NCBI GenBank assembly: GCA_913020725.1
Contig: CAJWCD010000105.1
Location: forward strand, 1 to 13,257
Length of the DNA stretch: 13,257 nucleotides
DNA from: an uncultured Pseudomonadota bacterium
GTDB taxonomy: Bacteria; SAR324; NAC60-12
Direction of reading: 5' to 3'
The notes under the pieces were generated by a model that was not told where the DNA came from, did no database searches, and saw nothing but the letters and a program-made list of their open reading frames with translations. Below, piece after piece: positions 325-13,131 of the stretch (positions within the stretch are counted from its first letter, which is position 1; the number at the start of each line of letters is the position of its first letter). The translations under genes and the position numbers were made by a program.

Positions 325-355
325 CATTCGTGCTTGGACAAACCCAGCACGAACG
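325..355 (-). terminator. Stem-loop downstream of the minus-strand operon
   Basis: Minus strand CGTTCGTGCT-GGGTTTGTCCA-AGCACGAATG forms a 10-bp stem with one G-U pair, about 30 nt after the DUF2784 stop. No strong U-tract. Confidence 0.4.
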
Positions 356-384: not shown

Positions 385-753
385 TTAACTGGCCATTTTC
401 CAATGCCACAGCACCCCTCCGTACAGCAGTAGATTGATCACCAGCACCCCCGTCCCCAGCCATTGCATCAACTCTAGGGTCAAACCGGGCGGGTAAATCA
501 CGGGCAGCAGCACGGATTCCACAAATCCCCCCTCGTATCCGGACTCCCCGGCCTGTTGTCGCCAGTGGTTTTCCCAATCTGTGAGCGGACAGACCCACCC
601 CCTCCACTCAACAATCACCGCCCAGACCGCTGCCGGAAGGTGCAGCCCCACCAGCCGAGGCCACCACCACAACAACACCGCTCCAGCCACGGCAAAAGCA
701 ATGAAGAGCAAATGTGCGATCAGTAAAGCGTCGGCAATGAGTTGAGCGAGCAT
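385..753 (-). CDS. DUF2784-family small membrane protein
   Basis: 122 aa. ADALLIAHLLFIAF, LHLPAAVWA, CPLTDWENHWRQQAGESGYEGGFV and IYPPGLT match my recollection of the DUF2784 pattern. About three hydrophobic helices. Confidence 0.8.
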   Translation of the reverse strand: MLAQLIADALLIAHLLFIAFAVAGAVLLWWWPRLVGLHLPAAVWAVIVEWRGWVCPLTDWENHWRQQAGESGYEGGFVESVLLPVIYPPGLTLELMQWLGTGVLVINLLLYGGVLWHWKMAS

Positions 754-830
754 TCTGCTTAACGTAAGTTTTGGATAAGCGTACCCGCAGAAGGGTTTAT
801 CTGGATGTTGCTCTCACTGCTCTTGTGTCG

Positions 831-1748
831 CTATCCTCCAAGCAGCACTCCGGAGGCAAGGCTGTACTTGGAGACAAATTCGGCGGCTGAAATCTTCTTG
901 GCATCGTGGGGCCGGACTCGCTGCACGAGGATGCCGCCTCCATTGGCGGCGACGGTGAACCCCTGCTCCGAAATTTCGACCACCTCGCCGGGTGCGCCTG
1001 AGGCTTCGACCTTGGTGCAGTCGTAGATTTTCAGCACATTGCTCTCGTGTGTGGTCCACGCGCCCGGTTGGGGATTGGTGCCCCGGATCAGGTTATGAAC
1101 CTCAGACACCGATTGCGACCAGTCAATTTCCGCGTGTTTGTGTTTGCACCAAGATTCATAAGTTGCTTGCGATTCGTCCTGCTGGACCCGCGGCGGGTTT
1201 CCGGAGCGCACAAGGTCAATCGCTTCCAAGGCAGCCTCAATTCCCAAAGGAAAGATTTTCTGGAAATAGATGGTGCCAAGTGTGTCCTCCGGACCAACGT
1301 CCACCTCCTTCTGCAAGAGGATTTCGCCTTCGTCAAGGCCGTCATTCGCCCAAAAGTAAGTCAGCCCTGTCTTGGTCGCACCACCGATGAGCGCCCAATT
1401 GATGGAGCTTGGGCCGCGATGCTTGGGCAGGAGTGACGGATGGAAACAGATGGAGCCGTGGGTTGGAATGTCACGGGCTGCTGCGGGTACAAAGAGCGTC
1501 ACATACGCCATCACGCAGAGCCCGGAGTTGAACCCCCGCATCTCGTCCAAGACTTCTTGGTCCTTGAAGTTGGGAGGCTGAACGACTGGAAGTCCTTGCT
1601 CCAGCGCAAACTCCTTGATTGGATCCACTGGTTTGCCCTCCTTGTCGGGCGCACAATAGACGGCAACGACTTCGTCCTCGCCTTTTTTCAAGACGGCTTC
1701 CAAGCACTCCTTGCCGAAGGCCTGCTGGCCCATGATGATCAGTCGCAT
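831..1748 (-). CDS. Stand-alone formyltransferase/hydrolase (formyl_trans_N + C), resembling the 10-formyl-THF dehydrogenase N-terminal domain; probably not a true Met-tRNA formyltransferase
   Basis: 305 aa. Folate-binding motif HPSLLPKHRG (His103), GLDEG (Asp139), HNLIRGTNPQPGAWT. The N-terminal GQQAFG and APDKEGKPVDP, and INWALIGG and YFWANDGLD, follow ALDH1L1 (GQSLFG, VPDKDGKADP, INWTLIHG, IFWADDGLD) rather than Fmt (GTPDFA, QPDRPAGRG). Confidence 0.85.
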   Translation of the reverse strand: MRLIIMGQQAFGKECLEAVLKKGEDEVVAVYCAPDKEGKPVDPIKEFALEQGLPVVQPPNFKDQEVLDEMRGFNSGLCVMAYVTLFVPAAARDIPTHGSICFHPSLLPKHRGPSSINWALIGGATKTGLTYFWANDGLDEGEILLQKEVDVGPEDTLGTIYFQKIFPLGIEAALEAIDLVRSGNPPRVQQDESQATYESWCKHKHAEIDWSQSVSEVHNLIRGTNPQPGAWTTHESNVLKIYDCTKVEASGAPGEVVEISEQGFTVAANGGGILVQRVRPHDAKKISAAEFVSKYSLASGVLLGG

Positions 1749-1778
1749 GTTTGCAATTTCCTTGCTTATCTGAGTTGG

Positions 1779-3023
1779 TTAAACCGCTTTTTCCTCTTTA
1801 GCCGCTGCAATCTCGGCATTGCTGAATCCGAGTTCCGTCAGGACTTCATCTGTGTGTTCCCCCAACAGCGGTGAACGTTGCACGTCTGTTGGCGAATCTG
1901 ATAGTTTGATCGGATTTCCAACCGTCAGGTATTTACCTCGCTCCGGATGATCAACCTCGACAATGGTGCCGGTCGCCCGCAGCGACGGTTCCTCGGCTAA
2001 CTCCTTCATGCTGAGGATCGGCCCACAAGGGACATTGAGTGGATTGAGGATGTCCATGACCTCGTACTTGGTTTTGGTCTTGGTCCACTTCTCAATTTCT
2101 TCAAAGAGTTGCTCAAGCTTGGGGAGGCGAGCTTCCGGAGTTGACCATTCCGGATCCTCCAACCAATCCTCGTGTCCGATGACCTTGGCAAGTGCAGGGA
2201 ACGCGGCTGCTTGAGTGATCACATAGCTGTAAGCATCCGGGTCGGTTTCCCAGCCTTTGCACCTCACAATCCAACCGGGTTGCCCTCCCCCTGAAGCATT
2301 GCCTGCACGCGGAGTCGCCTCGCCAAATTCTCCGTTCGGGTACTGCGGGTATTCTGTCAAGGGGCCATGTGCGAGGCGTTGCTGGTCGCGCAGTTTGACC
2401 CGACAGAGGTTCAAGACCCCGTCCTGCATGGCGCAGGTGATACGCTGGCCGCGTCCGCTTTTTTCGCGGTGGTACAAGGCCGTGGTGATTCCAAACGCTA
2501 AGTTCAGTCCGGTGCCAGAATCGCCAATCTGCGCACCCGTCACCATCGGGAATCGATCCAGCTCGCCTGTGGTCGAGGCCGAACCTCCTGTGCATTGTGC
2601 GACATTCTCATAGACCTTGCAGTCTGCGTAAGGCCCCGGCCCAAACCCCTTGACCGAGGCATAGATCATCTGCGGGTTGAGTTCCTGAATCTTTTCCCAA
2701 GGAAAGCCCATCCGGTCGATGGCTCCGGGAGCAAAGTTCTCGACTAAGACATCACAATGCTTGATGAGTTTGGCGAAGATTTCCTTACCTTTGACATGCT
2801 TGGTGTTCAGCGTGAGGCTGCGCTTGTTGTGATTGAGCATCGTGAAGTAGAGGCTGTCCACATCCGGGATGTCGCGTAACTGTCCGCGTGTCGCGTCTCC
2901 AACTCCGGGACGTTCCACCTTGATCACATCGGCGCCAAACCATGCGAGCAATTGGGTGCAAGTCGGTCCCGATTGCACATGGGTCATGTCCAGAATCCGG
3001 ACACCTTCTAAAGCTTTGGTCAT
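1779..3023 (-). CDS. frc: Formyl-CoA:oxalate CoA-transferase (family III CoA-transferase)
   Basis: 414 aa. [51 protein letters not shown], catalytic Asp168 in IGDSGTG (Asp169 equivalent), and glycine loop [10 protein letters not shown]. Closely follows Frc/YfdW. Confidence 0.93.
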
Positions 3024-3024
3024 T

Positions 3025-3059
3025 GCAGTTATCAGTGATTGGTGGTCAGTGGTCAGTGG
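3025..3059. repeat. Degenerate heptamer tandem repeat (5 units)
   Basis: GCAGTTA-TCAGTGA-TTGGTGG-TCAGTGG-TCAGTGG fills most of the 42-bp gap between the ThDP enzyme gene and frc. Confidence 0.7.
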
Positions 3060-3065
3060 TGAATG

Positions 3066-4805
3066 TCACTTGTACATGGTCTGAGCTTTGGTGCCCGGTG
3101 CATACTCGTTCGGATCAACCCAAACATTGATCACCGCCGATTTTCCGGACGATTTCACGGACTCGCGGGCGCGCTGCAAGGCCGGTTGAATTTCGTTCGG
3201 ATCACGGATTTCTTGTCCAGAACCACCGAGCATTTCGGCAAACGTCCCAAAGGGCACATCACCGAGTTTGTTGCCGACATTGCCGCGTTGCTCTCCGTAC
3301 TTGGTGACCTGTCCGTAGCGGATTTGGTTCATGTGCGAGTTGTTGCCGACAATGGCAATGTAGGGTGCGCCGAAACGGTTTGCAGTCTCCATGTCGAAGG
3401 CAGTCATGCCGAACGATCCATCACCATAAAGGCAGATCACTTCCTTCTGCGGATGAGCCAATCCCGCCGCCATCGCAAAGCCGGTGCCCACACCCAGCGA
3501 ACCAAGCGCTCCGGGGTCCATCCAATTTCCGGGACCACGCGGCTGCACGGCTTGGGCGCTGATGGTCACGATGTCTCCGCCATCGCCAATGTAGATTGTG
3601 TCCTCGCTGAGGAACTCATTGATCTCCCAAGCGAGGCGATAGGGGTGGATGGGGTTGGAGTTCGACAGGAACATCGGCATGAGTTTTTCCGTCTTCTCGG
3701 CTTCCTCTGCCCGGAGTCCGTCCAACCAGCCTTGGCGTCCCTTTGCACCGTTGTCCGAGCGACCTGTCGCCGCCTGCAAGGCTGCTGCGAGGATGGCCCC
3801 CGGATCACCAGCCAATCCTAACGAGATGTCTCGGTTCTTCCCTACCGTCCGGTAGTCCTGATCGATTTGAATAAGCGTCGCTTGCTTGCTGATGCGTTTG
3901 CCATAGCCCATGCGGAAATCGAAGGGCGTGCCAACAATGACGATCACATCTGCTTTCTTGAACGCGCTGGAACGAGTGCGATTGAAATAATGGGGATCTC
4001 CGGGGGGCAAAATTCCACGGCTGGCTCCATTCATGTAGAGCGCAACGTTCAGGCTGCGGGCAAGGTCAATGGCGGCTTGGTGACCGCGTGACATGAACAC
4101 TTGGGAGCCGACCAACATCGCTGGACGTTCGGCCTTCACCAAGAGGTCCGCAAGTCTCTCAATATCTTCGGGATCGCCAATGGATTTGACCGAGGCGCGG
4201 TAGCGACCCGGTTCCGGAATCACGGCGCTCTCCTTAGGAATCTCCCGGTCGAGCACGTCACGCGGTATTTCAAGATAGCTCGGCCCGTAAGCTCCGGTAA
4301 AGCATTCGCGCGCTGCCATGGAGATCATGTCCGCTACCCGTTCTGTGGACATGACTCCAGATGCGAACTTGGTGATCGGCGTCATCATGTCAACGTGCGG
4401 CAGGTCTTGCAGCGACCCCATCTTGTGCTGCGTCAGCGAACTCTGCCCGCCAATGTGCAGGATGGGGCTTTCCGAGCGGAAAGCAGTGGCGATGCCCGTC
4501 ATGGCATTGGTGCAGCCCGGACCTGCCGTGGTGACCACACAGCCAAGCTTCCCGGTCTGTCGGGCGTAGCCGTCTGCTGCGTGTGCCGCCGTCTGCTCGT
4601 GCCGGACATCAATGATGCGGATGCCTTCGTCAAGACAGCCGTCGTAAATGTCGATGATGTGACCCCCACAAAGCGTGAAGATGGTGTCCACCCCTTCGCT
4701 CTTCAGAGCTTTGGCGACAAGGTGTCCACCGGAAATAACCTCTTCCGAACGGCTCTTCTTGGCGAGGGTGTCTGTTGCAGTTTGGGAGGCCGGATTGGCT
4801 TTCAT
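3066..4805 (-). CDS. ThDP-dependent acyl-CoA decarboxylase/lyase (putative non-canonical oxalyl-CoA decarboxylase or 2-hydroxyacyl-CoA lyase; ILVBL/HACL2-like)
   Basis: 579 aa. Catalytic Glu in DVRHEQ, TAGPGCTN, ThDP/Mg motif GDGSFGM...GNNS, plus FTLCGGHI and WMDPGALGSLGVG. Lies immediately upstream of frc. The ThDP family is secure; the substrate is inferred. Confidence 0.85.
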   Translation of the reverse strand: MKANPASQTATDTLAKKSRSEEVISGGHLVAKALKSEGVDTIFTLCGGHIIDIYDGCLDEGIRIIDVRHEQTAAHAADGYARQTGKLGCVVTTAGPGCTNAMTGIATAFRSESPILHIGGQSSLTQHKMGSLQDLPHVDMMTPITKFASGVMSTERVADMISMAARECFTGAYGPSYLEIPRDVLDREIPKESAVIPEPGRYRASVKSIGDPEDIERLADLLVKAERPAMLVGSQVFMSRGHQAAIDLARSLNVALYMNGASRGILPPGDPHYFNRTRSSAFKKADVIVIVGTPFDFRMGYGKRISKQATLIQIDQDYRTVGKNRDISLGLAGDPGAILAAALQAATGRSDNGAKGRQGWLDGLRAEEAEKTEKLMPMFLSNSNPIHPYRLAWEINEFLSEDTIYIGDGGDIVTISAQAVQPRGPGNWMDPGALGSLGVGTGFAMAAGLAHPQKEVICLYGDGSFGMTAFDMETANRFGAPYIAIVGNNSHMNQIRYGQVTKYGEQRGNVGNKLGDVPFGTFAEMLGGSGQEIRDPNEIQPALQRARESVKSSGKSAVINVWVDPNEYAPGTKAQTMYK

Positions 4806-4818
4806 TGAGGTCTTATTG

Positions 4819-6339
4819 TCAAGGGGTTTGCTTGTCAGTGCTTGGGAAAAACCGGTTCTTGAGGGGCTTGAACGTCGGCATTGCCAGTAAAATTAAGGCG
4901 ATGACCATGATCAAACCGGCAATCGGTCGATTAAAGAAGATTGAGAACGAACCACCGGAAATCAACAGCGATTGCCTGAGCGCTGGTTCCGCTAACGGCC
5001 CCAGCACAATGGCTAACACTGCGGGCGCCATCGGGTAGTCCAACTTACGCATCAGGTAGCCGACGACGCCAAAAACCAACATCAACCAGACATCGTGCAT
5101 GTCCATCGTCGGCACAAAACCACCGACGACACAGAGGATGAAGATGACAGGTGCTAGGATCGTGAACGGCATCTTCAACACCCAGATGAAGGCTGGGATG
5201 AAGGCGATGTTGATCAAGAGCGCAAACAAATTCGCGACGTACAAGCTGGCGATAAAACCCCAGACGAAATCAGGGTGATCCGTGAACACCAAGGGTCCCG
5301 GCTCAAGACCCCAGATCACCATGCCACCCAACAGGATCGCCGTCGTCGGCGATCCGGGGATGCCGAGCGTCAGCATCGGCAGCATGGCGCCGGTCGAGGC
5401 GGCGTTGTTGGCGGATTCCGGAGCCACGATGCCGTTGATGTTGCCTTTGCCGTAGGTTTCGGGCTCACTGGATGTGGTTTTGGCAAAACCGTAGGCCATC
5501 AACGAACCGGGGGTTGCACCGGCAGCCGGCAGGATGCCGACGAAATAGCCGAGGAACGACCCCATCAACATCGTCTTCCAAGTCCGCGTCAGTTCCACCA
5601 GATTGTCCCAGATTCGCTTGACGGAGATGGTCGCCTGCGAGATCATCGCGTTGCCCTTGGAGATTTCGATCGTCCACAGCATCTCGGCAATGCCGTAGAT
5701 GCCGATGGCCAACACCAGAAAGTTGATGCCGTGGAAGAAGCCGGGGATGTCTCCAAAGATGAGCCTCGGTTCTCCCGAAATGATATCCAAGCCGACGGCG
5801 CCAAACACCAAACCGATGAAGATGGAGAACATCGTCTTCGGAATGTCGTCACCGCCAAGCCCGATGAAGGTGGCGAAAGCCAGTAGCATGAGGGCGAATA
5901 TTTCTGGGGAACCGAAGGTCAGCGCCACCTCAGCCAGTGGCGGCGCAAAGAGCGTGAACAAAACGACCCCGACACTACCGCCGACAAACGATGCCGCCGC
6001 TGCTGCCACCAGTGCCTTGTCGGCCTTGCCCTGCAAGGCCATGGGGCGTCCATCAAAAGTCGTTGCTACTGCGGTAGATGCGCCGGGGATGCCAAGCATG
6101 ATCGAACTGATGGCGCCCCCGTACATGGCTCCGTAATAGATTGCACCGAGAAAGATGATGGCACCCGTCGGCGGCACCAAGAAGGTCATGGGTAACAAGA
6201 TCGCGACACCATTGACGGAGCCCAGTCCCGGCATGGCGCCGATAAAGAGGCCAATGGTGCATCCGAGTATGATGAGCGCGAGGTTCAGCGGCTCAAAGGC
6301 GATGGCAAAGCCATTGAGGAGAAGAGACAGAATGTCCAT
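4819..6339 (-). CDS. tctA: Tripartite tricarboxylate transporter, large permease subunit (TctA family)
   Basis: 506 aa, polytopic. GAMPGLG, IYYGAMYGGAISSIMLGIPG, TTFDGRPMALQG, APESANNA, PMLTLGIPGS and GLEPGP are TctA signatures. Confidence 0.95.
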   Translation of the reverse strand: MDILSLLLNGFAIAFEPLNLALIILGCTIGLFIGAMPGLGSVNGVAILLPMTFLVPPTGAIIFLGAIYYGAMYGGAISSIMLGIPGASTAVATTFDGRPMALQGKADKALVAAAAASFVGGSVGVVLFTLFAPPLAEVALTFGSPEIFALMLLAFATFIGLGGDDIPKTMFSIFIGLVFGAVGLDIISGEPRLIFGDIPGFFHGINFLVLAIGIYGIAEMLWTIEISKGNAMISQATISVKRIWDNLVELTRTWKTMLMGSFLGYFVGILPAAGATPGSLMAYGFAKTTSSEPETYGKGNINGIVAPESANNAASTGAMLPMLTLGIPGSPTTAILLGGMVIWGLEPGPLVFTDHPDFVWGFIASLYVANLFALLINIAFIPAFIWVLKMPFTILAPVIFILCVVGGFVPTMDMHDVWLMLVFGVVGYLMRKLDYPMAPAVLAIVLGPLAEPALRQSLLISGGSFSIFFNRPIAGLIMVIALILLAMPTFKPLKNRFFPSTDKQTP

Positions 6340-6399
6340 CGGTGCTTGGAACTCAGGTCAAGTTACAAAGTCGGTTACTCTGATTGTAGCTTGGCAGGA

Positions 6400-6897
6400 T
6401 TAATAGAAAAAATCGAATATAGGCTCAAACCACGGGTCCGTGAAGCCCTTGGGCAGGGTTTTCTGCAAAGCAATCTCAAAAAACAAAAATGTCGCGATCG
6501 GCGTTACAAACGCGAAGGTACCCGTCAGCAACCATGAATGGCCGCCCATGAATCTCAGGTAAAAGATCAGGAAAAGCGGGATGGCCCCGTAGGCGCCGGT
6601 GATATGGAACAGACCAATCAGCGCGGTGAGAGCGCCAACATTGAGGAGGAACAGCTTGAGTGCACGGCTGTCCATGTAAACTTCTTCTGAGCGGGATTCC
6701 GGTGTTATCCGTTTTGCCCAGCGATAGGCGATGGCGAAGCAACACACCAACATTCCTGCCGCCAGCCAGAACGGCCATGCGCCGCCGCCAGGCCCTTCAC
6801 CGGGAATCCAGCCGATCGGGAGTTCGGCGCTTTTCCACATCAAGTAAAGGGAGAAAGCCCCCATGAAGATGCTCATGACGAGTTCTGCCATGCGCAT
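6400..6897 (-). CDS. tctB: Tripartite tricarboxylate transporter, small permease subunit (TctB family)
   Basis: 165 aa, about 4-5 TM helices. GPGGGAWPFW near the N-terminus and FFEIALQKTLPKG near the C-terminus. Located between tctC and tctA, with SD-like GGGAG upstream. Confidence 0.9.
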   Translation of the reverse strand: MRMAELVMSIFMGAFSLYLMWKSAELPIGWIPGEGPGGGAWPFWLAAGMLVCCFAIAYRWAKRITPESRSEEVYMDSRALKLFLLNVGALTALIGLFHITGAYGAIPLFLIFYLRFMGGHSWLLTGTFAFVTPIATFLFFEIALQKTLPKGFTDPWFEPIFDFFY

Positions 6898-6946
6898 TGG
6901 CGATCTCCCTCTGTTCCTTCAAGTGTCTGCTTCGTTCAAAACCAGA

Positions 6947-7930
6947 CTACTTGAGGACGCCCATCTTTTGCAGCATGACCTTGTGGATCGCCTTTTCCCG
7001 GAGCCAGTATTTCATCAGGATGTCGCCGGTGAGGAAACCACCCTGTAGGCTCTTTTTGGCCATATACCCCTGCCATTCGTCGGAACCGTAGATCTGTGCA
7101 AACAACTGGCGGTAATAGGTTGCCGCCTCCTTGCTCATGCCCGGTGCACCAACGACCGTGCGCTGCATAAAGTAGACGAAGTCCTTGCCCAACTCCTTGA
7201 AGGTAGGCGCATCGGCAAACAAAGGCAGTCGTGTCGGTGTGAACGCAGCAATTGCTCTTGTTTTGCCAGCTTGATAAAAGCCAAGCTGCTCGGAAGGATT
7301 GTTGACCGTTGAGTTGGCGTTGTTCCCGGCCAGTTCCTTGGCCACGCGTCCTCCCCCCTTGTAGGGCACATACTTCATGTTGAGGCCATAGGCCTTGTTC
7401 AGGAAGTCGGTCAGCAGATTGTCTTCGGAGTTCTTGCCGGTGCCGGCCATGATCCAAGCATTGCCCTTGGCCTTGGCCGCCCGGACAAACTGATCAACAT
7501 TCATGATGCCGGAGTCCACATTGACCCACAGCAGGAACGTGTCTTCGGCCATCCGTCCGACAGGCGTGAAGGTGGAGATGTCCACCCCAAGTCCCGGCTG
7601 GCGCAGCGGCGTGGTGTAGAAGCTGTTCAACGTGAACATGATGGTGTGGTTCGGGTCTGAGGCGTTCTTGACATGAACGAGCGCTTCAGCACCCGATCCG
7701 CCCGGTTTGTTGATCGGCGTAAACGGCTTCGATGACAACTTATGCTTGCTGATGATGTTCTGCATGTACCGCACTGCCTTGTCCGCGCCACCACCTTTGC
7801 CGGCCATGACGATAAACTCAACCGGCTTTCTCGGCTCCCAAGCCGAGGCGATCATTGGAGCGAACACCAAGGCCAGACCTAACCCAACGACCATGCCGAG
7901 GCTCATCAGTTTATTGGCTAACTTGCTCAT
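6947..7930 (-). CDS. tctC: Tripartite tricarboxylate transporter substrate-binding protein (TctC/Bug family)
   Basis: Signal peptide ending ASA/WEP, then PVEFIVMAGKGGGAD, NKPGGSGA, YVPYKGGG and DAPTFKELG. Start moved from 7969 to the ATG at 7930 (MSKLANK), which has the SD-like AGGAG upstream. Confidence 0.92.
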   Translation of the reverse strand: MSKLANKLMSLGMVVGLGLALVFAPMIASAWEPRKPVEFIVMAGKGGGADKAVRYMQNIISKHKLSSKPFTPINKPGGSGAEALVHVKNASDPNHTIMFTLNSFYTTPLRQPGLGVDISTFTPVGRMAEDTFLLWVNVDSGIMNVDQFVRAAKAKGNAWIMAGTGKNSEDNLLTDFLNKAYGLNMKYVPYKGGGRVAKELAGNNANSTVNNPSEQLGFYQAGKTRAIAAFTPTRLPLFADAPTFKELGKDFVYFMQRTVVGAPGMSKEAATYYRQLFAQIYGSDEWQGYMAKKSLQGGFLTGDILMKYWLREKAIHKVMLQKMGVLK

Positions 7931-7968
7931 AATCTTCTCCTGAAATGAGTTAATGAAAAATGTAAACA

Positions 7969-7991
7969 TTCTGAAACCCCCTGTTTCAGAA
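7969..7991. promoter_or_regulatory. Operator-like palindrome at the predicted transcription start
   Basis: TTCTGAAAC-N5-GTTTCAGAA, a perfect 9-bp inverted repeat beginning 6 nt downstream of the predicted -10 box. Confidence 0.6.
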
Positions 7992-7997
7992 CCAGTT

Positions 7998-8038
7998 AAT
8001 ATACTAGCGCAAATTTTCGGGAGTCAAAACTTTTTTTG
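7998..8038 (-). promoter_or_regulatory. Sigma70-type promoter of the tct-ThDP enzyme-frc operon
   Basis: Minus strand: A8 tract (8031-8038, UP-element-like), TTGACT (8027-8022), 18-nt spacer, TATATT (8003-7998). Confidence 0.65.
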
Positions 8039-8361
8039 GGGGGGCAGACTCTACTGCGCACCTGTTCAAGATGAGCGGTCCACACCCTTCTTCGCGAACC
8101 GGGGAAATTCCTGCGGTCATGGATTTCTCGATGGCCGTCAATTCGGAAAAGTCATGAGGCTGATGGAGGAATCCGGCAGTGGCAAGTCCACGGTCGTGCT
8201 GCGGGGTAAGTCAGGGTTACAAAAAGCGCCCAAGTCAAAGAAGCGAGGGGAGGTTGACGCACAAGGATTCCTGTGGAGGGCGGAAGCTGCCACAGATCCA
8301 GAAGAGACGTATTCTGCATGAGGCACGATCAGAATGCGGAGCGAGACTGGTTTGCTCTTCC

Positions 8362-9072
8362 TCAATACTCATACTCATCATGGACGCTCCCATCCGACTT
8401 GAGGAAGGGAGGAACACGCCCGACCAATTCCTCCAGCATGATCAGTTCCTGATCGGAGTGGTTGAACATTGGTGCGAGAGCAATCCGTTTTTCCGCTGCG
8501 TAAATGAAGCGTGGGGCCTCGTGATGCTGGGTGGTCACGGTTTCGGTGATGTCCGGAGTTTCCTTGATCTGCAAATGGGAAGTTCCATAACAGGTGCAAA
8601 TGTAGGTTTTCTCGGAGTCGCTCTCCAAGTAGGCACCGGTTCCCCGGATGGCGATCACGGCGGTGGGCGTTCTCAACATACGCTTTCCCCGTGCGAAGAC
8701 CGAGAGGATCGCACCGAAGCTGAGTTGGAATCCAGAGATTTCGTTTGGTTTCGTACTTGCTGCCGGTGTCAGGACGACCCGGCTGTTCTTGTGCAGCAGA
8801 AAGGCATCCTTGCCGACGACAAAGACGGCAGATCCATCCGGGCCTGTACTCAAGGAGGCGTCATTGGGAACTTTCAGCCTCCCGGTGGCGGTCAGTTGTT
8901 TGGAGGTGATCCGCTGACCGTTGATGAGAACTTCGCCTGTAACCTTTCTCACGCCACTGCACAGGGTCACTGGAGCACAGCCACCCAAAAGCAAACTGAC
9001 GGCTCCCATCGCACCCAACATGGAGAGCAGGTTCAGCATCTCCCGCCTGTCGTATCGTTTCCAGTTTGACAT
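8362..9072 (-). CDS. Predicted Tat-exported lipoprotein with FecR-like beta domain
   Basis: 236 aa. Twin-arginine-like DRREML, hydrophobic stretch and lipobox LLGG/C. STGPDGSAVF and RTPTAVIAIRGT are typical of FecR-like domains. SD-like AAGGA upstream. Confidence 0.75.
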   Translation of the reverse strand: MSNWKRYDRREMLNLLSMLGAMGAVSLLLGGCAPVTLCSGVRKVTGEVLINGQRITSKQLTATGRLKVPNDASLSTGPDGSAVFVVGKDAFLLHKNSRVVLTPAASTKPNEISGFQLSFGAILSVFARGKRMLRTPTAVIAIRGTGAYLESDSEKTYICTCYGTSHLQIKETPDITETVTTQHHEAPRFIYAAEKRIALAPMFNHSDQELIMLEELVGRVPPFLKSDGSVHDEYEY

Positions 9073-9180
9073 GGTCTTCCTTGGTTAGAGCAAAAGTTTC
9101 CACCATCATTCAAGAGTATGTCCAGTAGCTGTGCTCTGCAAGGTTCTTGACGAGAGGATTTAGGAAAGACTCAAAAGTCC

Positions 9181-10206
9181 TCAGTGGGTGAAGCGATACG
9201 CCGAGTCGTAGTAGAGGTAGGGATTGAGCGCGAGGTTGCGGGCGAGCAGGGGCAGGTGATCAGTGGCGGGCGTAGCGGGTTCGCGGACGATGCCCCAGCG
9301 TTCCGTTTCGGGATTGAGTTCGACTCGGTAGGTGCCGAAATCCACAAAGGCGCGCTGCTGCGTTTGGTGGAGGTAGAGCAGTTCCGGAGCGAACTCCAAC
9401 CGGGGGGTTCCAAGGATTTGGATGCCCGTGTCGTTGAGCTGAAGCTGGTAGTTGAGCAGTCGGGGCGGCACCCACGCAGCAGTCAAGAGCGAGGTTTCCT
9501 GAAGGCGCTCTGAGTGATCCTGAATCACGCGGGTTTCGGTGCTGACGTTTTTCAGTTTTCCCTGCACTGCGAGTGGGGCCAATTCCCGGAAATTGATGAA
9601 GCGTTGGTAGTTGCGGCGCAGAAATCCCGTGGCGGTCCTGCGCTTCATGCGCAGTCCGATGGAATTCAGAGAGTAGCGGGTCAGGAATTCCGGGGGATGT
9701 TGATAATTCAAATCCTCGACAAAGAACAAGCCTGTGTCGTTGATGAGTTCTGTCGTGAGCAGGGCACCGGACGGCGTGTTGATCTGCACTTGGAGTTGCA
9801 TCTCGTCCGCGAGCCGGAAGGCGCCCCGCAGTTTCTGGAACTCGAAGTGGACCCGCCCTGCGATCAGCACCCGGGTCCAGTGCGGACGCTCCGCTTGAAA
9901 TCCGGAGTGGTTGGGATTTTGGGCAAGCCCCGCCTCCAGCCGCTGGTACGCTTTTGCAAATTTATGCTCCTGCAAATAATGCTGATAGCGCCGGAAATTG
10001 TCGTCCGCGACCTTGAGGTTCGCCCGCTCTAGGGCTTCCCGGATTTCCACATCCTCCGGATCATCAACATAAGCGATGCGGTACTCGATGGCGGCTTCCT
10101 CCCAACGGCCTTGAGCCTCCAGCTCCTGCCCTTGGTCGTAGTGGTACGAGCAACTTGCAAGCAACCCGCAGAGCAAAACGAAAATCGTAATTCGCAAGGA
10201 TTTCAA
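9181..10206 (-). CDS. Hypothetical lipoprotein with N-terminal TPR-like repeats
   Basis: Likely TTG start at 10206 (or 10197), just after the guaB stop: LKSLRITIFVLLCGLLAS/C lipobox, then TPR-like HYDQGQELEAQGRWEEAAIEYRIAYVDDPED and AYQRLEAGLAQNPNH. The extension to 10467 overlaps guaB and is rejected. Confidence 0.75.
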   Translation of the reverse strand: MKSLRITIFVLLCGLLASCSYHYDQGQELEAQGRWEEAAIEYRIAYVDDPEDVEIREALERANLKVADDNFRRYQHYLQEHKFAKAYQRLEAGLAQNPNHSGFQAERPHWTRVLIAGRVHFEFQKLRGAFRLADEMQLQVQINTPSGALLTTELINDTGLFFVEDLNYQHPPEFLTRYSLNSIGLRMKRRTATGFLRRNYQRFINFRELAPLAVQGKLKNVSTETRVIQDHSERLQETSLLTAAWVPPRLLNYQLQLNDTGIQILGTPRLEFAPELLYLHQTQQRAFVDFGTYRVELNPETERWGIVREPATPATDHLPLLARNLALNPYLYYDSAYRFTH

Positions 10207-10222
10207 TTGAACATACAAAAGG

Positions 10223-12056
<1,834 letters not shown>

Positions 12057-12438: not shown

Positions 12439-13131
12439 ATGCTGGACTGGAATCCGTACATCATCCTGCTGAACGTTGCCTACACGATTTGGCTGGCGGC
12501 TTTTGTGGCCAAAGACATCGTCTGGCTGCGAATGTTTACCATCACCGGCAACGTGGTGGTCTTGCCGTACTATCTCTATTTCTTTGAGAAACCGCTCTGG
12601 AACCCCATCACCTGGGTGGGCATCTACACAGTGATCAACGCGGTCATGCTGTTCCTGCTCTATCTCGAACGCAGGCCAGTGAAACTCAGCAAAGCCGAGC
12701 AGAAAATCCGGGCACTGACGTTCAAATCCCTAGAACCGCGGGTGTTCAAGAAACTGATGGATCAGGGCGTGTGGGACCGGATACCGCCCCACGTCGAGTT
12801 GGTGGCGCGGGACAGTGATCTGGACAACCTGCTGCTGGTGGTGGAAGGTGAGGCCGAGGTGGTGTTGAAACACGGAGAGCATCGCACCATTCCCACGGGT
12901 GGGTTCATTGGCGAGCAGTCCTTCATCACGGGCGGGAAGACCTCGGCGGATGTCAGCACCGGTGCAGAGGCAACCACGATTCTGCGCTGGAACAAGCAGG
13001 AACTCCGCAAGTATCTTGGACGTCACGAAGCGCTCAAGCACACCTTCGACCTGATCCTGACTGCCGACCTGATCTACAAACTGCGTGGCATGGATCAGGA
13101 TGGGCCGGAAATCGTCAACTCCCATATCTGA
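12439..13131 (+). CDS. Popeye-like membrane protein with C-terminal cyclic-nucleotide-binding (CRP-like) domain
   Basis: 230 aa. Three N-terminal TM helices with KDIVWLR and WNPITW...IN, linker ERRPVKLSKAEQKI...FKSLEPRVFKKL, beta-roll LLLVVEGEAEV...GGFIGEQSF...SADV, and C-terminal ADLIYKL. Confidence 0.8.
   Translation: MLDWNPYIILLNVAYTIWLAAFVAKDIVWLRMFTITGNVVVLPYYLYFFEKPLWNPITWVGIYTVINAVMLFLLYLERRPVKLSKAEQKIRALTFKSLEPRVFKKLMDQGVWDRIPPHVELVARDSDLDNLLLVVEGEAEVVLKHGEHRTIPTGGFIGEQSFITGGKTSADVSTGAEATTILRWNKQELRKYLGRHEALKHTFDLILTADLIYKLRGMDQDGPEIVNSHI

Follow-up and report, generated by a model that had tools for sequence, protein, structure and literature searches.

Organization and conservation of the locus

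A stretch of 13,257 nucleotides from an uncultured SAR324 bacterium (contig CAJWCD010000105.1 of assembly GCA_913020725.1), called here the window, carries a gene cluster built around frc, which encodes a formyl-CoA:oxalate CoA-transferase. The other genes encode a tripartite tricarboxylate transporter (TTT; tctC, tctB and tctA), a thiamine diphosphate (ThDP) enzyme and a stand-alone formyltransferase (FT), which together with Frc probably form a variant pathway of oxalate import and breakdown. The seven open reading frames (ORFs) are all co-oriented on the minus strand, with consecutive gaps of 49, 60, 13, 42, 30 and 77 bp (Table 1), exactly reproducing the gene order, shared orientation and six gap lengths of the original prediction for this DNA. 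The tctC start is likelier at 7930 than at 7969, as an AGGAGA site is located 5 nt upstream of 7930.

Table 1. Genes and putative signals of the cluster (positions in the window)
Feature	Position	Strand	Description	Remarks
tctC	6947..7930	-	TTT solute-binding protein	PF03401; ORF open from 7969
tctB	6400..6897	-	TTT small membrane subunit	PF07331
tctA	4819..6339	-	TTT large membrane subunit	PF01970
ThDP enzyme gene	3066..4805	-	Three-domain enzyme; its clade is highly conserved and unnamed	Predicted second oxalyl-CoA decarboxylase type
frc	1779..3023	-	Formyl-CoA:oxalate CoA-transferase	TIGR03253
FT gene	831..1748	-	Stand-alone, two-domain formyltransferase, like the ALDH1L1 N-domain	Predicted 10-formyl-tetrahydrofolate:CoA formyltransferase
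DUF2784 gene	385..753	-	Membrane protein	PF10861; co-oriented, not conserved with the cluster
Promoter candidate	7998..8027	-	Sigma-70-like	10/12 matches, 18-nt spacer; top site in window
9-bp inverted repeat	7969..7991		Possible operator or leader hairpin	Downstream of promoter candidate
3' hairpin	327..353	-	Possible terminator	Arms 327-337 and 343-353; 32 nt beyond last stop codon

Two sets of loci were compared: 80 loci centred on the ThDP gene, the best from a scan that covered part of the GTDB genomes, and 80 metagenome loci centred on FT, of which many are short. The first set contains frc in 75 loci, FT in 40 (one partial, at a locus edge) and tctA in 31. The full architecture, with tctC, tctB and tctA upstream of the ThDP gene and frc and FT downstream, recurs in relatives as the original prediction had proposed to look for: it is present in 13 of the 80, across Alpha- and Gammaproteobacteria. 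The FT-centred set has frc in 51 loci, the gene for the formate-tetrahydrofolate ligase Fhs in 38, the ThDP clade in 24, canonical oxalyl-CoA decarboxylase (Oxc) in 16 and the ADP-forming ligase described below in none. Among 41 kin genomes, 14 have FT, and all 13 carriers of the ThDP clade fall among those 14. The six-gene unit tctCBA-ThDP-frc-FT is real and conserved. The DUF2784 gene, first counted as a seventh operon member, has to be taken out of this unit. It is found in none of the ThDP-centred loci and in one FT-centred locus (a near-identical copy), and it does not follow FT in a genome of the same genus (G001); it is therefore a local addition. The gene aceK, for isocitrate dehydrogenase kinase/phosphatase, was seen in 8 of the 80 ThDP-centred loci (L009, L023, L024, L034, L035, L038, L065 and L076).

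Frc is the sole canonical member of the cluster, as first proposed: it scores 693 bits with TIGR03253, above the curated cut-off of 504. Its closest solved relative is E. coli YfdW, with which the catalytic Asp of the GDS motif aligns; the glycine-rich loop is SGGGQ here versus GGGGQ. The cluster thus resembles the OxlT/Frc/Oxc pathway of Oxalobacter formigenes and the E. coli yfdXWUVE genes in its canonical Frc, in having a ThDP gene directly upstream of frc and in the cycle predicted from it. It differs in that no Oxc-family gene and no oxlT above cut-off is present, a TTT importer being found instead.

A ThDP enzyme in the place of oxalyl-CoA decarboxylase

The ThDP enzyme belongs to an AcHACL-like branch and not to Oxc, in line with the original view that the decarboxylase had been replaced by another family. 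It scores 213 bits with the Oxc model TIGR03254 (cut-off 739) and is 26% identical to a canonical Oxc; it also remains below model NF058623 for actinobacterial 2-hydroxyacyl-CoA lyases (367 versus 600 bits). The closest solved relative is AcHACL, followed by HACL/S enzymes, and the nearest named relative among the matches listed is from a SAR324 metagenome-assembled genome (MAG; 89%), which points to SAR324 as the probable host. The enzyme had been described as ILVBL-type, ILVBL being HACL2. The label fits in so far as AcHACL has been linked to human HACL2 (PMC8760513).

All statements on the active site come from sequence alignment. AcHACL residues H44, T88, L127, Q128 and R273 have retained equivalents; among these, His49, Thr93 and Gln133 (for H44, T88 and Q128) are invariant in the clade, and Arg278 (for R273) is present in at least 90% of its sequences. 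In contrast to AcHACL, the acid/base Glu493 aligns to Ile495, invariant in 27 sequences of the clade, and Ile492 aligns to an equally invariant Gln494. Decarboxylation is reported to need no acid/base of the Glu493 kind (PMC8760513). The two enzymes differ also in that ours lies below the family cut-off and in an oxalate genomic context.

The strongest evidence for a second type of oxalyl-CoA decarboxylase is a distribution complementary to that of Oxc. Fifty carrier genomes of the ThDP clade were selected from the 80, half of them with FT at the locus and half without it (25 each), with long contigs favoured, and a canonical Oxc above cut-off was found in one of them. Cupriavidus, the genus to which Cupriavidus sp. 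30B13 belongs, was represented by 78 genomes: Oxc alone is present in 52 (in two as a partial match), the ThDP clade alone in 19, both in one and neither in six. In the Cupriavidus loci compared, the two types share the neighbours panE, gntR, frc, FAH-family, cbbR-like and oxlT. The ThDP clade also lies beside annotated oxlT and frc in Phyllobacterium, and beside frc and an OFA-family transporter in Streptomyces. From this replacement of Oxc, oxalyl-CoA is very likely the substrate of the ThDP enzyme.

A TTT system in the place of OxlT

All three Pfam families of TctABC transporters are encoded in one run, as is known for such systems, and the TctC protein differs from them in being far from every solved binding protein (distant relatives only, best E 2e-19). 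The idea that the usual transporter has been replaced is borne out, as the TTT system stands where OxlT does in other loci. None of the 31 ThDP-centred loci with tctA contains oxlT, versus 16 of the 49 without; among the 33 loci with full flanks the counts are 0/16 and 9/17. No oxlT above cut-off was found in this genome. The same TTT type also accompanies canonical Oxc, in the cultured Paracoccaceae strain La 6, a carrier of oxc-frc-FT-fhs-tctCBA, and in metagenome loci. It is found in the ligase version of the cluster too (L030, L036 and L067), and OxlT occurs with FT in L050 and L063. Transporter, decarboxylase and fourth enzyme are thus exchanged independently of one another. From this context, the TTT system probably carries oxalate. 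Oxalate binding by Bug proteins has been raised in the literature as a speculation.

A folate-linked formyltransferase

FT is a stand-alone protein of 305 residues, with a predicted structure of mean pLDDT 94.7. Among solved structures, it matches the ALDH1L1 N-domain best (2e-62, versus 1e-41 for Fmt). The ALDH1L1/FDH N-domain (PDB 4qpd and 1s3i), for which the triad and the folate-binding residues have been named (PMC4388273), shares with FT the His/Ser/Asp triad, the equivalents of Phe89, Arg114 and Tyr200, and an insertion near residue 161. In 40 FT sequences, His103, Ser105, Asp139 and Tyr197 are present in all; F86 is found in 36, and position 111 is Arg in 34 and Lys in 6. The Asn located two residues before the His in Fmt, which is crucial in Fmt, ArnA and GART (PMC4388273), is replaced by Gln (26/40) or Cys (14/40) and was found in no sequence; the ALDH1L1 N-domain also lacks it. 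Two further motifs are common to FT and ALDH1L-type proteins. FT differs from ALDH1L1/FDH in having no fused carrier or aldehyde dehydrogenase domain, the long homologues found being fusions to Fhs, and in its predicted acceptor, CoA rather than protein-bound phosphopantetheine.

In a quick tree of 70 rows, the 28 Asn-type rows were separated from the FT/ALDH1L-type rows by a branch with 100% SH-aLRT. Because possession of the Asn was what defined the Fmt group, the tree shows one branch and not an independent label; among the non-Asn rows it did not resolve the position of FT, nor FT as a sister of ALDH1L. Further stand-alone formyltransferases devoid of the Asn (P0159-P0231) lie outside the oxalate clade, and some branch beside ALDH1L.

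Fusions of FT to Fhs account for 35 of the 38 longer homologues, 31 of these fusions being full length. They are about 880 residues long, have FT first and come from several sources (P0121-P0157), with pairwise identities from 66 to 100% among long alignments. These fusions, the similarity to the ALDH1L1 N-domain and the conserved triad and folate residues agree with the proposal that the fourth enzyme is folate-linked. FT can with good confidence be expected to move formyl groups between folate and CoA. There are two precedents for this chemistry. LctF of lactacystin biosynthesis, an Fmt-like protein (32% to Fmt), forms formyl-CoA from 10-formyl-tetrahydrofolate (10-formyl-THF) and CoA in vitro (PMC11730586); it differs in feeding a PKS/NRPS, and it is likened to FT by its reaction, not by sequence comparison. 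HypX's N-terminal domain has been proposed to transfer formyl from 10-formyl-THF to CoA (PMC6802093). HypX is distant in sequence (E 2e-9); its CoA stays bound, and the formyl-CoA is decarbonylated to CO.

Fhs, an ADP-forming ligase and the direction of formyl transfer

Fhs is encoded in 20 of the 40 ThDP-centred loci with FT, versus 3 of the 40 without. The other version of the cluster carries instead a 710-residue ADP-forming acyl-CoA ligase, found in 1 of the 40 loci with FT versus 18 of the 40 without. At the genome level, among the 50 carriers, the ligase is present in 8 of the 9 FT-less genomes versus 5 of the 41 FT-bearing ones. On the tree of ThDP enzymes the ligase-only state requires 7 changes, of which strong branches force at least 5, so it is not one lineage; kinship and habitat would still inflate any p-value. 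The ligase may be an oxalate- or formate-CoA ligase. Annotated as an "acetate--CoA ligase family" protein (L064:13014-15152 and L081:5307-7433), it passes no curated NCBIfam cut-off; its gene is broken in L042 and L202. In two Binatia genomes (G055 and G056; loci L190 and L191), the oxalate cluster itself carries the ADP-forming ligase, and FT is located away from it, upstream of genes for a PaaK-like CoA ligase and a xanthine-dehydrogenase-family protein. FT showed no association with panE at the loci (7/40 versus 10/40).

The sum of Fhs and FT would be that of an ADP-forming formate:CoA ligase, which would explain the FT-Fhs fusion and the exclusion of the ligase together. In E. coli, YfdE has been proposed as primer of the cycle, because the loop run by Frc brings no net gain or loss of CoA and because formyl-CoA is unstable; in quenched mixtures its half-life was 1.9 h (PMC3720670). 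Because fusion and exclusion fit this sum, and LctF and HypX are precedents for transfer from folate to CoA, we read FT as a primer in the SAR324 cluster, and with moderate confidence we favour net transfer in this direction. Priming would thus proceed via folate here, unlike in E. coli, where it is proposed to go via acetyl-CoA (YfdE; PMC3720670). The original prediction had part of the formyl-CoA drained into folate, with CoA return or a priming enzyme encoded elsewhere needed for net withdrawal; the presence of FT where the ligase is missing rather fits FT itself as the priming enzyme.

Other relevant genes of the genome

The genome is 93% complete and encodes Fhs (contig C177), FolD (C24) and a formate dehydrogenase of the NAD type (C10) outside the window, as well as GlyA, a serine-glyoxylate aminotransferase-like protein and glycerate kinase. 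No acyl-CoA ligase or formate dehydrogenase was found among the 11 window proteins scanned, as had been noted. No orthologue of the cluster ligase is present in this genome (best matches about 26-34%), and neither glyoxylate carboligase nor malate synthase G was found above cut-off. The operon is not self-contained, contrary to what had been suggested, because Fhs, FolD and formate dehydrogenase are on other contigs, and Fhs is the usual neighbour or fusion partner of FT. On C177 (L087), fhs follows a methyl-THF:corrinoid methyltransferase gene, which suggests a cluster for the demethylation of methyl compounds.

A divergent PanE-like protein (C68:8356-9411; L185:5357) is 55% identical to the PanE of the La 6 oxalate cluster, and its gene is directly upstream of sucA-sucB-lpd. 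A relative of the La 6 PanE follows frc in Paracoccus alcaliphilus. PanE2 of Methylorubrum is an oxalyl-CoA reductase, and the C68 protein is a candidate for the same activity.

Proposed pathway and alternatives

From the observed gene identities, synteny, exclusion patterns, fusions, residues and presence in RNA libraries, we infer every substrate and direction of the following pathway. The TTT system would import oxalate, Frc would load it onto CoA from formyl-CoA, and the ThDP enzyme would decarboxylate oxalyl-CoA back to formyl-CoA. FT would top up the cycle by converting 10-formyl-THF and CoA to formyl-CoA, the 10-formyl-THF being supplied from formate and ATP by Fhs, encoded on another contig here and adjacent or fused in many relatives. 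Together, Fhs and FT would convert formate, CoA and ATP to formyl-CoA, ADP and Pi, a job that in the other cluster version appears to be filled by the ADP-forming ligase. Since the loop of Frc and decarboxylase is CoA-neutral, it would call for priming only when it starts, when formyl-CoA has been hydrolysed and when oxalyl-CoA is drawn off for biomass. Without OxlT antiport, energy would come from formate oxidation by the NAD-type formate dehydrogenase. Taken as a whole, this reading is slightly favoured. A bolder version can be put forward tentatively: a complete, unrecognised oxalate pathway in marine bacteria, SAR324 included, in which all components but Frc arose independently. These would be a second oxalyl-CoA decarboxylase drawn from the AcHACL branch, a TTT importer of oxalate, and FT-Fhs, often a single polypeptide, working reversibly and by way of folate as an ADP-forming formate:CoA ligase. 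The FT-Fhs pair would then both prime the cycle and recover thioester energy as ATP or formyl-THF.

Several observations weigh against the proposed pathway. The Tyr-Glu pair of Oxc is replaced by Leu132-Gln133 in the ThDP enzyme, and Arg496 stands opposite the active-site Tyr of Oxc (the Tyr483 equivalent) in the pairwise alignment; lacking this pair and this Tyr, the enzyme would need another way of binding oxalyl. Nor does FT accompany oxalate genes everywhere: of the 39 FT-centred loci that extend 3 kb or more upstream, 10 have no oxalate gene, neither frc nor ThDP. The exclusion is also imperfect: both FT and ligase are present in 5 of the 50 genomes, the locus examined in the ninth genome without FT shows just a fragment of the ligase, and two ligase matches contain an internal stop. 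Exclusion shows equivalence and not direction. Five canonical-Oxc Cupriavidus loci lack both FT and the ligase within 20 kb, so a cluster need not carry a priming gene. Priming could also be done by eight further class III CoA-transferase matches of the SAR324 genome, all below the cut-off for YfdE. The genome's fhs product is 52% identical to the cluster-type Fhs and is encoded within a methyl-THF/corrinoid cluster. Most genomes compared are incomplete MAGs, kinship and habitat are not independent, and the first-look searches scored a limited number of candidates per genome. The five Cupriavidus loci just mentioned (L196-L199 and L203) have two frc paralogues, the second of which may be a primer.

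The most serious alternative, although unlikely, is the opposite net direction, that of the original prediction, in which FT would pass formyl from formyl-CoA to THF. This would feed the folate one-carbon pool without the ATP spent by Fhs, or yield ATP via reversed Fhs, and Frc or a different CoA-transferase would make good the lost CoA thioester at the expense of succinyl-CoA or acetyl-CoA. Such a transfer ought to be reversible, and the neighbours of FT include folD (L165, L176 and L179), serine-cycle genes on the La 6 plasmid, and sucC or sucD in 8 of 40 FT loci. Promiscuous Frc enzymes may also need no priming enzyme (PMC3720670). However, net withdrawal requires a source of thioester, and FT occurs where the ligase is missing. 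Moreover, a fusion to Fhs would be of little use if the purpose of FT were to bypass Fhs, and the one in vitro demonstration found, that of LctF, is of transfer from folate to CoA (PMC11730586).

Two further alternatives are improbable. The ThDP enzyme could be a 2-hydroxyacyl-CoA lyase acting on, for example, glycolyl- or lactyl-CoA, with a 2-hydroxy acid imported by the TTT system and activated by Frc, and formyl-CoA disposed of by FT and Fhs. This would agree with AcHACL and the HACL/S enzymes as nearest solved relatives and with the four matching residues at positions 49, 93, 133 and 278. It agrees poorly with the absence of the catalytic Glu493, with the score below the lyase cut-off, with the one-for-one exchange with Oxc in Cupriavidus and with the company of oxlT and panE; no aldehyde-handling gene was found among the 35 recurring neighbour ORFs scanned. 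With similarly poor prospects, FT could be a hydrolase of 10-formyl-THF, like PurU, or of formyl-CoA, freeing THF under a flood of oxalate-derived formate. The isolated ALDH1L1 N-domain, whose residues FT retains, does hydrolyse its substrate when a thiol is present (PMC4388273), but a hydrolase fused to Fhs would form an ATP-wasting loop, and the exclusion with the CoA ligase would be left unexplained. A second Met-tRNA formyltransferase, as suggested by the source labels of the databases and the same two Pfam domains, is hardly credible, given a score below the Fmt model TIGR00460 (164 versus 201.5 bits), a true fmt on contig C29, the missing catalytic Asn and the separate branch.

Transcription, putative signals and flanking genes

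Twenty RNA runs contain at least one fifth of the sequence words of the window, 19 of them labelled as seawater metagenome. In four of these runs, each gene is partly covered by contigs, which also span the junctions tctC-tctB-tctA, tctA-ThDP, ThDP-frc and FT-DUF2784; at the frc-FT gap they extend just 29 nt into FT, which is under the bridging rule. Runs X2 and X4 have no cover in bins 7957-10608, which was not counted as evidence. Co-transcription of the cluster is likely but unproven, because contigs cannot prove that the genes share one transcript and the libraries may also contain DNA.

The promoter and palindrome at the 5' end and the hairpin at the 3' end that had been reported are all present. 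However, the window has about as many promoter-like sites as chance predicts (6 found versus 5.3 expected), and the hairpin lies just outside the range first given for the operon. This hairpin is modestly above shuffles (z -2.2, region 280-400) and is the sole one of the three elements to be so. Terminator counts in the window showed no excess over shuffles, in a scan that did not list the 3' hairpin. Folding was no better than shuffles for the 5' leader (z -0.5), the FT-DUF2784 gap and two other intergenic stretches. In the near-identical locus L105, the left arm of the inverted repeat carries two substitutions.

Upstream of the cluster, a small minus-strand protein (8362-9072) has no Pfam match and is grouped by the Atlas with FecR-domain clusters (scores 0.95-0.98). 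Beyond it lie guaB (IMP dehydrogenase) with, downstream, a TPR-bearing protein of unknown family (9181-11785, minus strand), and a gene for a POPDC/cyclic-nucleotide-binding membrane protein (12439-13131, plus strand).

Novelty and significance

The oxalate cycle and folate-to-CoA formyl transfer (LctF, HypX) are already known; the three replacements and their interchangeability appear to be new. In the open-licence full-text literature, no paper was found on this FT, the ThDP clade or the architecture, and no assay of the three non-canonical parts came up; subscription papers could describe them, and the supplements of HACL/OXC screens could include the clade. The parts covered of PMC11461619, PMC7176365, PMC11961710, PMC11271303 and PMC2864759 make no mention of any of the three.

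If the proposed pathway is true, a function would be named for two widespread families now mislabelled "thiamine pyrophosphate-binding protein" and "methionyl-tRNA formyltransferase". The former would represent a second oxalyl-CoA decarboxylase that oxc markers miss, carried by 20 of the 78 genomes of Cupriavidus, by Streptomyces and by many MAGs of marine origin. The TTT system would be a candidate oxalate importer. The Fhs-FT pair would offer a route from formate to formyl-CoA, even as a single fused protein, which would be useful for formyl-CoA-based one-carbon elongation pathways. Finally, surveys based on oxc and oxlT would overlook these organisms.

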